Below are positions 23,687 to 25,187 of a stretch of DNA of 32,014 nucleotides, in pieces. The stretch covers positions 1 to 32,014 of the forward strand of contig JAZGAD010000056.1 of the NCBI GenBank assembly GCA_036444275.1. The letters are read 5' to 3'. The notes beneath the pieces were generated by a model, which saw only the letters and a program-made list of their open reading frames with translations, was not told the DNA's origin and ran no database searches. This stretch comes from Candidatus Hydrothermarchaeales archaeon (lineage in GTDB: Archaea; Hydrothermarchaeota; Hydrothermarchaeia; Hydrothermarchaeales; JAZGAD01). The position numbers were made by a program, and so were the translations under genes. Within the stretch, counting starts at the first letter, position 1. Every line of letters starts with the position of its first letter.

Positions 23687-24304
23687 TTACTTAGAGACCG
23701 TTACAGCCTCAGCAAATATCATGGTTCCCTGGATGCCATTGATCCTCGCCTTTACCTGCTGGCCGATCCTCGCATTGCTCACGAAGACGATGTATTTACC
23801 CAGTCTTGCGGTGCCGTCCCCCTTCTTCCCTATACCTGTAATATCCAGCGTGATCTCCTCTCCAATTTCTGGTTCTTTTGACTCTGCCTTGGGTATTGCC
23901 TTGGGAGCGCTCAATGCGTGCTTAGAGCCGCACGCCTCACATTTCAGAAAATGAATCCTCCCCTCTTTGATTATCTTAGTATCCGGCCTTCCGCACTCAC
24001 CACAGAGGACGAATTCCTTGACGAAGCCCTCGAATTTCTCCTGTGCCTGAGCCTGTCTAAATTGGCCTTTCAGAGTGAGGTGCTGCCCATTCTGAACGCC
24101 AGAGGTGCCGCATTCCATAATCAGGTGCTTCGCAACCATATCTGCGTCGCGACTTATGGCCTTACTGACCTCTCCAAGGTTCTGTATCACCGTAATCTTT
24201 CCTTGGATTATAGATTGCACCATAGGCATCTCGAACCTAGAATGCTCCTTCAGAACCGCTGGCAACTCGCTATATGCCTTTTCAAGTAGAGCTTCATATT
24301 TCGT
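23687..24304 (-). CDS. eif2b: Translation initiation factor aIF2 beta subunit with a C-terminal TRAM domain; inferred ACG start
   Basis: KYEALLEKAYSELP N-terminal helix, RFEMP, CGECGRPDT..CEACG Zn ribbon, TRAM motif GKKGDG. GGAGG lies 7 nt before ACG (24304-24302), with an in-frame TAG upstream. Confidence 0.92.
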   Translation of the reverse strand, partial: TKYEALLEKAYSELPAVLKEHSRFEMPMVQSIIQGKITVIQNLGEVSKAISRDADMVAKHLIMECGTSGVQNGQHLTLKGQFRQAQAQEKFEGFVKEFVLCGECGRPDTKIIKEGRIHFLKCEACGSKHALSAPKAIPKAESKEPEIGEEITLDITGIGKKGDGTARLGKYIVFVSNARIGQQVKARINGIQGTMIFAEAVTVSK

Positions 24305-24863
24305 TTTTCTTCCTCCGTCCTTGTAAGAGGCCTAGCTCACTTAGTGTATTATAGACGTTCTCAGCAGCCCTCTCAGCGTCCTCTACACTCTTCGCTCCAG
24401 TGCATACTATCTTGCCAGAACCGAAGAGGAGGAGCACCACCTTTGGGTCCTTCATTCTGTAGACTAATCCAGGGAACTGCTCAGGCTCATACTCTGTGTT
24501 GTCAAGCCCTACAGCAATAGCGTCCAAATTCAGCTCTGCCTCTAAATTTGCCGTAGCAACGACATTTTGAACTATTACCTCTGGTTTCTTGTCTATCTCG
24601 ACTCCCGACTCTTTTATCTTCTGTACTATCCGTTCTATAGCTAGTTTCGCCTCATCTATACTCTTCGCCCCTGTGCATACTATCTTGCCAGAACCGAAAA
24701 TCAGGGCCGCAGCCTTGGGCTCGTCTAAGTGGTATACCAATCCAGGGAACTGCTCAGGCTCATACTCCACTTTGTCCATGGCCACTGTTATGAGTCCAAG
24801 ATCGAACTTCTGTCCTAGTGAAGTAGAGGCGACTACATTTTCTACTTTTACCTTCCTAACCAT
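24294..24863 (-). CDS. tbp: TATA-box binding protein
   Basis: Two NVVA..YEPEQFPGLVY..FGSGKIVCTGAKS repeats. GGAGG SD before ATG 24863. Confidence 0.98.
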   Translation of the reverse strand: MVRKVKVENVVASTSLGQKFDLGLITVAMDKVEYEPEQFPGLVYHLDEPKAAALIFGSGKIVCTGAKSIDEAKLAIERIVQKIKESGVEIDKKPEVIVQNVVATANLEAELNLDAIAVGLDNTEYEPEQFPGLVYRMKDPKVVLLLFGSGKIVCTGAKSVEDAERAAENVYNTLSELGLLQGRRKKNEI

Positions 24864-24953
24864 AATCTGCCTCCAGTACTCTTTGAGATGGTATAGTTTT
24901 GTTTTAATAACATTAAACACCTAAAAGGATTTAAACGTTTATAAAGGATTTGC

Positions 24954-25187
24954 ATGAATAATACTGGAACGCATGACTTCAAAGTTGGCGACGAGCTGAA
25001 CCCGTACCTAGGCAAGCCGGTGCTAGTGAGGCTTAAAAATGGGAAGGAATTTAAAGGGCTTCTTAGGGGATTTGATGAGTACATCAACCTAGTGATCGAT
25101 GATGCCGAAGAAATAGGAACGCCAGGAAGACAGTTTGACACCCTTATATTCAAAGGAGGACTGGTAGGCTCTATTACCCCAGAATAA
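24954..25187 (+). CDS. Sm-like (Lsm/SmAP) RNA-binding protein
   Basis: Sm1 motif VLVRLKNGKEFKGLLRGFDEYINLVI and an Sm2-like LIFKGG. Confidence 0.9.
   Translation: MNNTGTHDFKVGDELNPYLGKPVLVRLKNGKEFKGLLRGFDEYINLVIDDAEEIGTPGRQFDTLIFKGGLVGSITPE

Follow-up and report, generated by a model that had tools for sequence, protein, structure and literature searches.

How is an initiation factor made when its own reading frame carries ACG at the place of the start codon? The gene for aIF2-beta in the window (the whole stretch of DNA analyzed here, a contig of 32,014 nt) raises this question. On the minus strand, the aIF2-beta frame is intact and open from an in-frame TAG at 24334-24332, and none of the nine codons between this stop and the ACG is ATG, GTG, or TTG. 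The ACG is directly followed by the peptide KYEALLEKAYSELP. The public gene call of 192 aa (P0001) starts instead at the first canonical codon of the frame, a TTG further downstream. The original prediction, which drew attention to this locus, described the frame, the ACG, and the lack of ATG, GTG, and TTG ahead of the N-terminal helix correctly in every detail. The reading that we favor, and to which we give a probability of about one in two, is that a T-to-C replacement private to this lineage has turned an ancestral ATG into ACG, and that full-length beta would still be produced from this codon at reduced efficiency, without this being a conserved regulatory design. The features involved are collected in Table 1.

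Table 1. Features at the junction of the TBP and aIF2-beta genes (positions in the window)
Feature	Positions	Strand	Remarks
aIF2-beta + TRAM fusion gene	23687..24304	-	ACG to stop 23689-23687; 205 codons
ACG at the ancestral start-codon position	24302..24304	-	Aligned with the relatives' starts
TTG, first canonical in-frame start (Leu of SELP)	24263..24265	-	From reading of the frame
Out-of-frame ATG	24295..24297	-	Overlaps the TBP stop; ORF of only 15 codons
Conserved N-terminal helix YEALLEKAYSELP, anchor of beta to gamma	24260..24298	-	Alignment with 2d74_B; PMC6412873, section 2.1.1
GGAGG Shine-Dalgarno (SD)	24312..24316	-	7-nt spacer (24311-24305) before the ACG
TBP gene	24294..24863	-	ATG 24863 taken as start; stop TGA 24296-24294; 189 codons
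TBP tail QGRRKKNEI, nine codons	24297..24323	-	Runs over the SD and the ACG

The original prediction overlooked an ATG that lies out of the aIF2-beta frame, just downstream of the ACG. This ATG derives from the conserved Tyr-Glu codons, and it is also present in L002 and other loci. As a start for beta it was rejected, being in the wrong frame, opening an ORF of 15 codons, and arising as a by-product of those conserved codons.

The protein read from the ACG matches the eIF-5/eIF-2B domain (PF01873) over residues 19-128 (E 1.6e-32; 112.3 bits versus a Pfam cut-off of 27) and the TRAM domain (PF01938) over residues 146-201 (E 1.1e-7). Both Pfam domains, beta and TRAM, are carried by 81 of the 82 homologue matches. 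The C-terminal TRAM domain, an RNA-binding domain, is encoded at 23702-23869 of the minus strand; homologues from outside the Hydrothermarchaeales, about 45% identical and about 140 aa long, consist of the beta part only, with no TRAM match. Among solved aIF2-beta chains, 1nee_A and 2d74_B are matched by the window protein. Like archaeal aIF2-beta in general (PF01873; 1nee_A, 2d74_B, 3cw2_K), it contains the alpha-beta core and the zinc-knuckle region (E 7.5e-35 and 1.7e-33) as well as the N-terminal helix YExLLEKAY, whereas the C-terminal TRAM domain and the ACG in place of a canonical start set this gene apart from the solved archaeal aIF2-beta.

The position of the start matters because of this helix. 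In the protein read from the ACG, residues 3-15 can be aligned with residues 8-20 of 2d74_B, the beta chain of the P. furiosus beta-gamma complex, and section 2.1.1 of PMC6412873 describes beta as anchored to the nucleotide-binding domain of gamma by its N-terminal helix alone. The helix is encoded only when translation starts upstream of the TTG. This alignment, together with that section, upholds the original prediction that the helix is encoded ahead of any canonical start and would be deleted by a start at the TTG. The helix codons are intact and conserved as much as the remaining protein; across KYEALLEKAYSEL, 12 of the 13 helix residues are identical to those of P0002, the closest protein. 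One aIF2-beta copy was found in the source genome (G000), a metagenome-assembled genome (MAG) of 61 contigs and 81% completeness.

Comparison with relatives indicates what stood at this codon before. By the source names of its homologues, the genome belongs to the Hydrothermarchaeales. All 35 Hydrothermarchaeales genomes of the collection were examined, and the 5' end of the gene was read in 29 of them and in G001, the only other genus of the same family. In 29 of these 30 genes, a canonical codon in frame precedes the conserved Tyr by 1-5 codons (the nearest one being ATG in 24, TTG in 4, and GTG in 1). Metagenome loci numbered 35, two of them cut; all 33 informative ones have a canonical start (ATG in 31, GTG in 2), placed 2-10 codons ahead of the same Tyr. 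In total, a canonical start stands at the ACG position or within a few codons of it in 62 of the 63 related loci. G001 and L022 have ATG exactly at the window's ACG codon, the G001 junction reading ATGGACTATGAA where the window reads ACGAAATATGAA. In four loci of the f5 family (L003, L005, L007, and L011), the codon is TTG, within a TTGA that overlaps the TBP stop.

The proteins give the same picture. P0002, 85% identical to the window protein, has the N terminus MDKYEALLEKAY (MDKYEALLEKAYEELP), and the next four proteins (73%, 73%, 71%, and 71% identity) open with MEKYE or MKYE; all five closest proteins thus have M, zero to two residues, and then KYE or YE at the N terminus. Of 81 homologous proteins with public calls, 69 begin shortly before the helix; among the other 12, five start inside the helix (at Met or Leu), five, all from one lineage, start at the Leu of ELP, and two start further downstream. 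TTG at this ELP Leu occurs in 3 of 31 Hydrothermarchaeales aIF2-beta genes (the window's gene and its 30 relatives). A metagenome scan for closer relatives returned none above 68% identity, and the protein collection has no variant that starts at ATG and is at least 90% identical. As judged from these alignments, the ACG is homologous to the relatives' start codon, lies one transition away from ATG, and is private and derived. A non-AUG start conserved across relatives, the pattern sought by the original prediction, is not borne out by the 62 canonical loci and by the ATG of G001 and L022 at this very codon. The original prediction had itself taken ATG at this position in relatives to mean an assembly error or a private mutation, and such relatives exist (G001 and L022).

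A second lineage, that of G006, also has a near-cognate codon at this place. In L024 (1486-1545; G006:C18), the TBP stop TAA is directly followed by a CTG in the beta frame, which aligns with the GTG of the family relatives G014, P0021, and P0028. The helix peptide EYGELLDKAYKELP comes after this CTG with its codons intact, and canonical codons occur in the locus only as two TTGs, one inside the helix and the other at ELP. Since a sister group that is 81% identical to L024 (P0063, P0064, P0066, P0068, and P0070; two sources, seven contigs) is likewise called from the ELP TTG, comparison of these genes suggests that the G006 lineage has long been without a canonical upstream start.

The ACG lies within the end of another gene. 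The ORF upstream (24920-24294, minus strand) encodes TBP (PF00352, E 1.7e-65). TBP lies directly upstream of aIF2-beta at 26 of 32 junctions, the window included, with spacers of 0-20 nt, and the pair therefore looks like a conserved, possibly coupled unit. Where TBP is upstream in relatives, it ends right after an ELGL-type motif, and the codon that follows is TAA, TAG, or TGA; in the window, the codon after ELGLL is CAA (24323-24321). Among the 119 TBP homologues listed, 68 end exactly after the ELGL-type motif, and the basic nine-residue tail of the window TBP is absent from all 119. Two C-for-T letters, 18 nt apart, thus remove the TBP stop and the beta start, and the TBP frame now extends to 5 nt beyond the ACG. 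In the relative assembled from run X3 (91% alike), one base is missing at 24318; since such a deletion is harmless only in a non-coding spacer, this comparison suggests that the CAA is recent in the window's lineage.

In another lineage, P0105 and P0112 represent TBPs whose tail has eight residues and likewise Q at its beginning; the loss of this stop is thus recurrent. Because this lineage shows it too, the loss seems to be tolerated, as far as sequences can tell. Several TBP homologues from other lineages (P0084, P0086, P0102, P0118, and P0150; 272-289 aa), about 51-57% identical to the window TBP, have an additional PF11858 domain.

The arrangement resembles that of translationally coupled genes. 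The two ORFs are co-directional, and the TBP stop is close to the ACG. For overlapping gene pairs in Haloferax and E. coli, Huber et al. 2019 (PMC6728339) give coupling for 13 of 14 pairs. Like such pairs, TBP and aIF2-beta are co-directional and overlap (by 11 nt, with the TBP stop 5 nt beyond the ACG), and an SD lies inside the upstream ORF. The pairs described there have ATGA or TGATG overlaps and canonical starts, whereas the window has an ACG and an overlap that came about through the loss of the TBP stop (PMC6728339).

We then consider the signals that could direct a ribosome to the ACG. The 3' end of the 16S rRNA, found on contig C6, reads GGATCACCTCCT and contains the anti-SD. We surveyed SD spacing at the first canonical start of each of 1,258 long ORFs, 146 of which are preceded by GGAGG at a distance of up to 20 nt. 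From GGAGG to the start, the modal spacing is 7 nt (43 of 146), the runner-up being 9 nt with 18 sites; the control, ATG, GTG, and TTG codons in the second halves of ORFs, has no 7-nt peak (16 of 632) and shows codon periodicity only. The GGAGG before the ACG is therefore at the organism's optimal distance: the 7-nt interval noted in the original prediction is present, and it equals the modal spacing of the genome. GGAGG-N7-ACG alone is common, with 51 cases among 4,584 genomic GGAGG sites, and the motif by itself thus proves little; over the whole genome, ACG has no excess at spacing 7 after GGAGG. The SD before the ACG carries weight because relatives hold a G-rich, SD-like run in the short spacer of the same TBP/aIF2-beta junction. 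Moreover, the ACG is the sole near-cognate codon that this SD serves.

A genome-wide habit of ACG starts was rejected. In 1,373 long ORFs, we scanned every codon that follows the upstream stop and precedes the first canonical start: 77 have GGAGG at 6-8 nt, and two of these are ACG (2 of the 129 pre-start ACG codons). The other SD-served ACG is a false positive, since it lies inside the end of a neighboring, different gene, ahead of an obvious ATG start. Nor does ACG show an excess at spacing 7. A special decoder of ACG was also rejected: the initiator tRNA (C53) is normal, with a CAT anticodon, A1-U72, and three G-C pairs in the anticodon stem (read by eye), and tRNA-Thr(CGT) is an ordinary elongator. 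The aIF1 (SUI1) gene of the source genome is intact, with an ordinary ATG and an AAGGAG SD (G000:C28:47349-47654; L068 1435-1740). It comes after the gene for ribosomal protein L29, and its product has an N-terminal CxxC...CxC motif, a zinc knuckle of the kind that a review mentions for some archaea.

As for RNA elements, no Rfam family matches the junction, and the 106-nt junction RNA folds no better than its shuffles (z +0.56). A sub-threshold match to RF00132, a C/D-box snoRNA (24898-24988, plus strand; 26 bits against a gathering threshold of 38, E 0.082), lies antisense to the TBP 5' region and is probably due to chance.

How the weak start would work can be proposed as follows. A lineage-private T-to-C change would have turned the ancestral ATG into ACG in an aIF2-beta + TRAM gene that is otherwise intact. 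The SD would set the ACG in the P site, where Met-tRNAi would initiate at reduced efficiency, and the full-length beta so produced would retain its helix and could still dock on gamma. Ribosomes that end TBP 5 nt downstream may re-initiate at the SD-served ACG by termination-reinitiation coupling, and this coupling to TBP translation would make a weak ACG tolerable. We infer that full-length beta is still made since beta is essential, as stated for Haloferax volcanii in the relevant part of PMC3828320, since the helix is the sole gamma anchor, and since the gene and the helix codons are intact. For a factor that is essential, ACG should be a poor choice of start, given that a review names AUG, GUG, and UUG as archaeal start codons in its passage on the subject (PMC7531240), that aIF1 destabilizes non-AUG complexes according to the section of PMC6237735 that treats it, and that aIF1 is intact in this genome. 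In the parts of the Haloferax volcanii ribosome profiling study that deal with initiation sites (Gelsinger et al. 2020, PMC7261190), near-cognate sites were seen and set aside. That study shares with the present case near-cognate codons as candidate archaeal starts (PMC7261190); its sites are presented there as alternative ones and possible false positives, whereas here an essential gene would have no start other than the window's ACG. No description of an ACG-initiated archaeal gene turned up in a limited search of the literature. Taken on the sequence, the ACG is probably real and still used weakly.

This reading presupposes that the letter itself is correct. If the consensus or the assembly were wrong, or if the window carried a minor allele of a population that has ATG, the ACG (and perhaps the CAA) would be a non-dominant state, and several facts are in keeping with this: the source is an 81%-complete MAG in 61 contigs, the ACG state is unique among 63 related loci, and two unexpected C-for-T letters stand 18 nt apart, both at translation signals. 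We checked the sequence against assembled Logan contigs; contigs of X2 (record 10) and X6 (record 25), 97% alike, and of X3 (record 19), 91% alike, also cover the site. The X1 contig (1,310 nt, word depth 12.8), which may come from the MAG's own sample, spans 23690-24772 with five differences from the window. Those listed, at 23741 and 23770, are both synonymous (codons read by eye), and nothing at 24302-24304 or 24321-24323 is among the differences listed. From the ranking of these differences, X1 is taken to agree with the window at the ACG: the listed differences reach down to a support of about 7, so that one of depth 12.8 should appear, as two others of the same depth do. In addition, the same 192-aa TTG-start call and the same extended, 189-aa TBP are present on two NCBI contigs of unequal length, the longer of 32,042 nt (the window's contig has 32,014 nt), and the protein collection is without an ATG-start variant of at least 90% identity. 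We consider an error or minor allele unlikely, and the ACG is very probably the true dominant sequence. Alternatively, the start may have moved to the TTG at 24265. Without the helix, beta could not dock on gamma, and the gene would be a hypomorph or decaying, or its product would act apart from gamma. This TTG is the first canonical start and the one chosen by the public call, and both G000 and G006, the genomes without a canonical upstream start, have TTG at the ELP Leu, where 28 of the 29 remaining Hydrothermarchaeales genes have other Leu codons; this sharing is what a shift to the TTG would predict and is a counter-point to use of the ACG. However, no SD match of at least 4 nt occurs in the 20 nt upstream of the TTG, and the 13 codons ahead of it are intact, and 12 of them agree with the 85%-identical P0002. 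The shift is also at odds with anchoring by the helix alone (PMC6412873, section 2.1.1) and with the essential role assigned to beta in the passage on Haloferax (PMC3828320), and no second beta copy was found in this 81%-complete genome. A shifted start thus appears improbable to us.

C-to-U editing of mRNA that creates start and stop signals is a pattern known from plant organelles. Here it would restore both signals, ACG becoming AUG and CAA becoming UAA, which would fit two anomalies on one strand, 18 nt from each other, in both of which the T of the relatives is a C and a translation signal is lost. Yet the genome scan of GGAGG-served genes gave no second genuine ACG start candidate, and the TBP stop loss needs no editing to explain it because the Q-first loss is also found in the lineage of P0105 and P0112; editing is, in our estimate, extremely improbable. 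We give hardly any credence to a +1 ribosomal frameshift on the five A's at 24308-24304 that would fuse TBP to aIF2-beta in the manner of prfB, where the SD lies 3 nt before the shift codon and the A-site codon is slow. The geometry is suitable: beta is read in the +1 frame with respect to TBP, AAA can pair again without mismatch after a shift of one base, and 3 nt separate AAA from the end of GGAGG. The A-site codon, however, is AAC, an ordinary sense codon and no stop, the site is not conserved, relatives having a stop and a spacer instead, and none of the aIF2-beta matches carried a TBP domain in the 112-359 aa range searched. Lastly, the original prediction proposed that the near-cognate start could form a feedback sensor of initiation stringency; in such a model, the start would be selected, and beta synthesis would rise as stringency falls. 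Autoregulation through a sub-optimal start is the case for infC (IF3), with its AUU start, and for eIF1 and eIF5, with their poor context; in both infC and eIF1, the weak signal is shared throughout a clade, and discrimination against it is a function of the factor itself. The window gene resembles these in being an initiation-factor gene with a sub-optimal start signal of its own, the logic is coherent, and start codons of aIF2-beta do vary within the order (ATG, TTG, GTG, and, at the ancestral site in G006, CTG). Unlike theirs, its signal, the ACG, occurs in one genome alone, and the closest relatives have ATG (62 of 63 loci canonical; 69 of 81 proteins starting before the helix). Since it is private and derived, autoregulation of the infC or eIF1 type has no comparative support; archaeal beta is not known to set stringency against ACG, and the aIF1 gene of this genome has an ordinary ATG and SD. 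What holds of the original interpretation is a helix encoded upstream of the canonical starts and an SD-served ACG at the ancestral start; the feedback sensor does not hold against the canonical starts of the relatives. We regard such a sensor as most unlikely, and the regulatory interpretation as unsupported by the sequences compared.

Whichever way the start is settled, the locus bears on how archaeal genomes are read. If the ACG is a consensus error, or if the gene is a hypomorph, the case illustrates that gene callers shorten such genes without warning (here, 13 residues are lost and with them the docking helix), and start-site anomalies in MAGs require read-level checks before they are interpreted. 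If the weak ACG start is true, an essential single-copy gene on ACG would show that the aIF1/aIF2 machinery uses a near-cognate codon productively, and the junction would serve, just as it is, as a reporter of both start-codon stringency and coupling to the ORF upstream. At the level of the order, one may speculate that aIF2-beta of Hydrothermarchaeales, translated behind TBP, has repeatedly come to lie on a near-cognate start (ACG here; CTG in G006, maybe across about 19% protein divergence) and forms a natural stringency-sensing loop, an idea that we hold to be very unlikely. If the helix is still under selection in the G006 lineage, near-cognate initiation would be more than an accident; and if these near-cognate codons do serve as starts, the amount of beta available would depend both on the permissiveness of initiation and on the translation of TBP.
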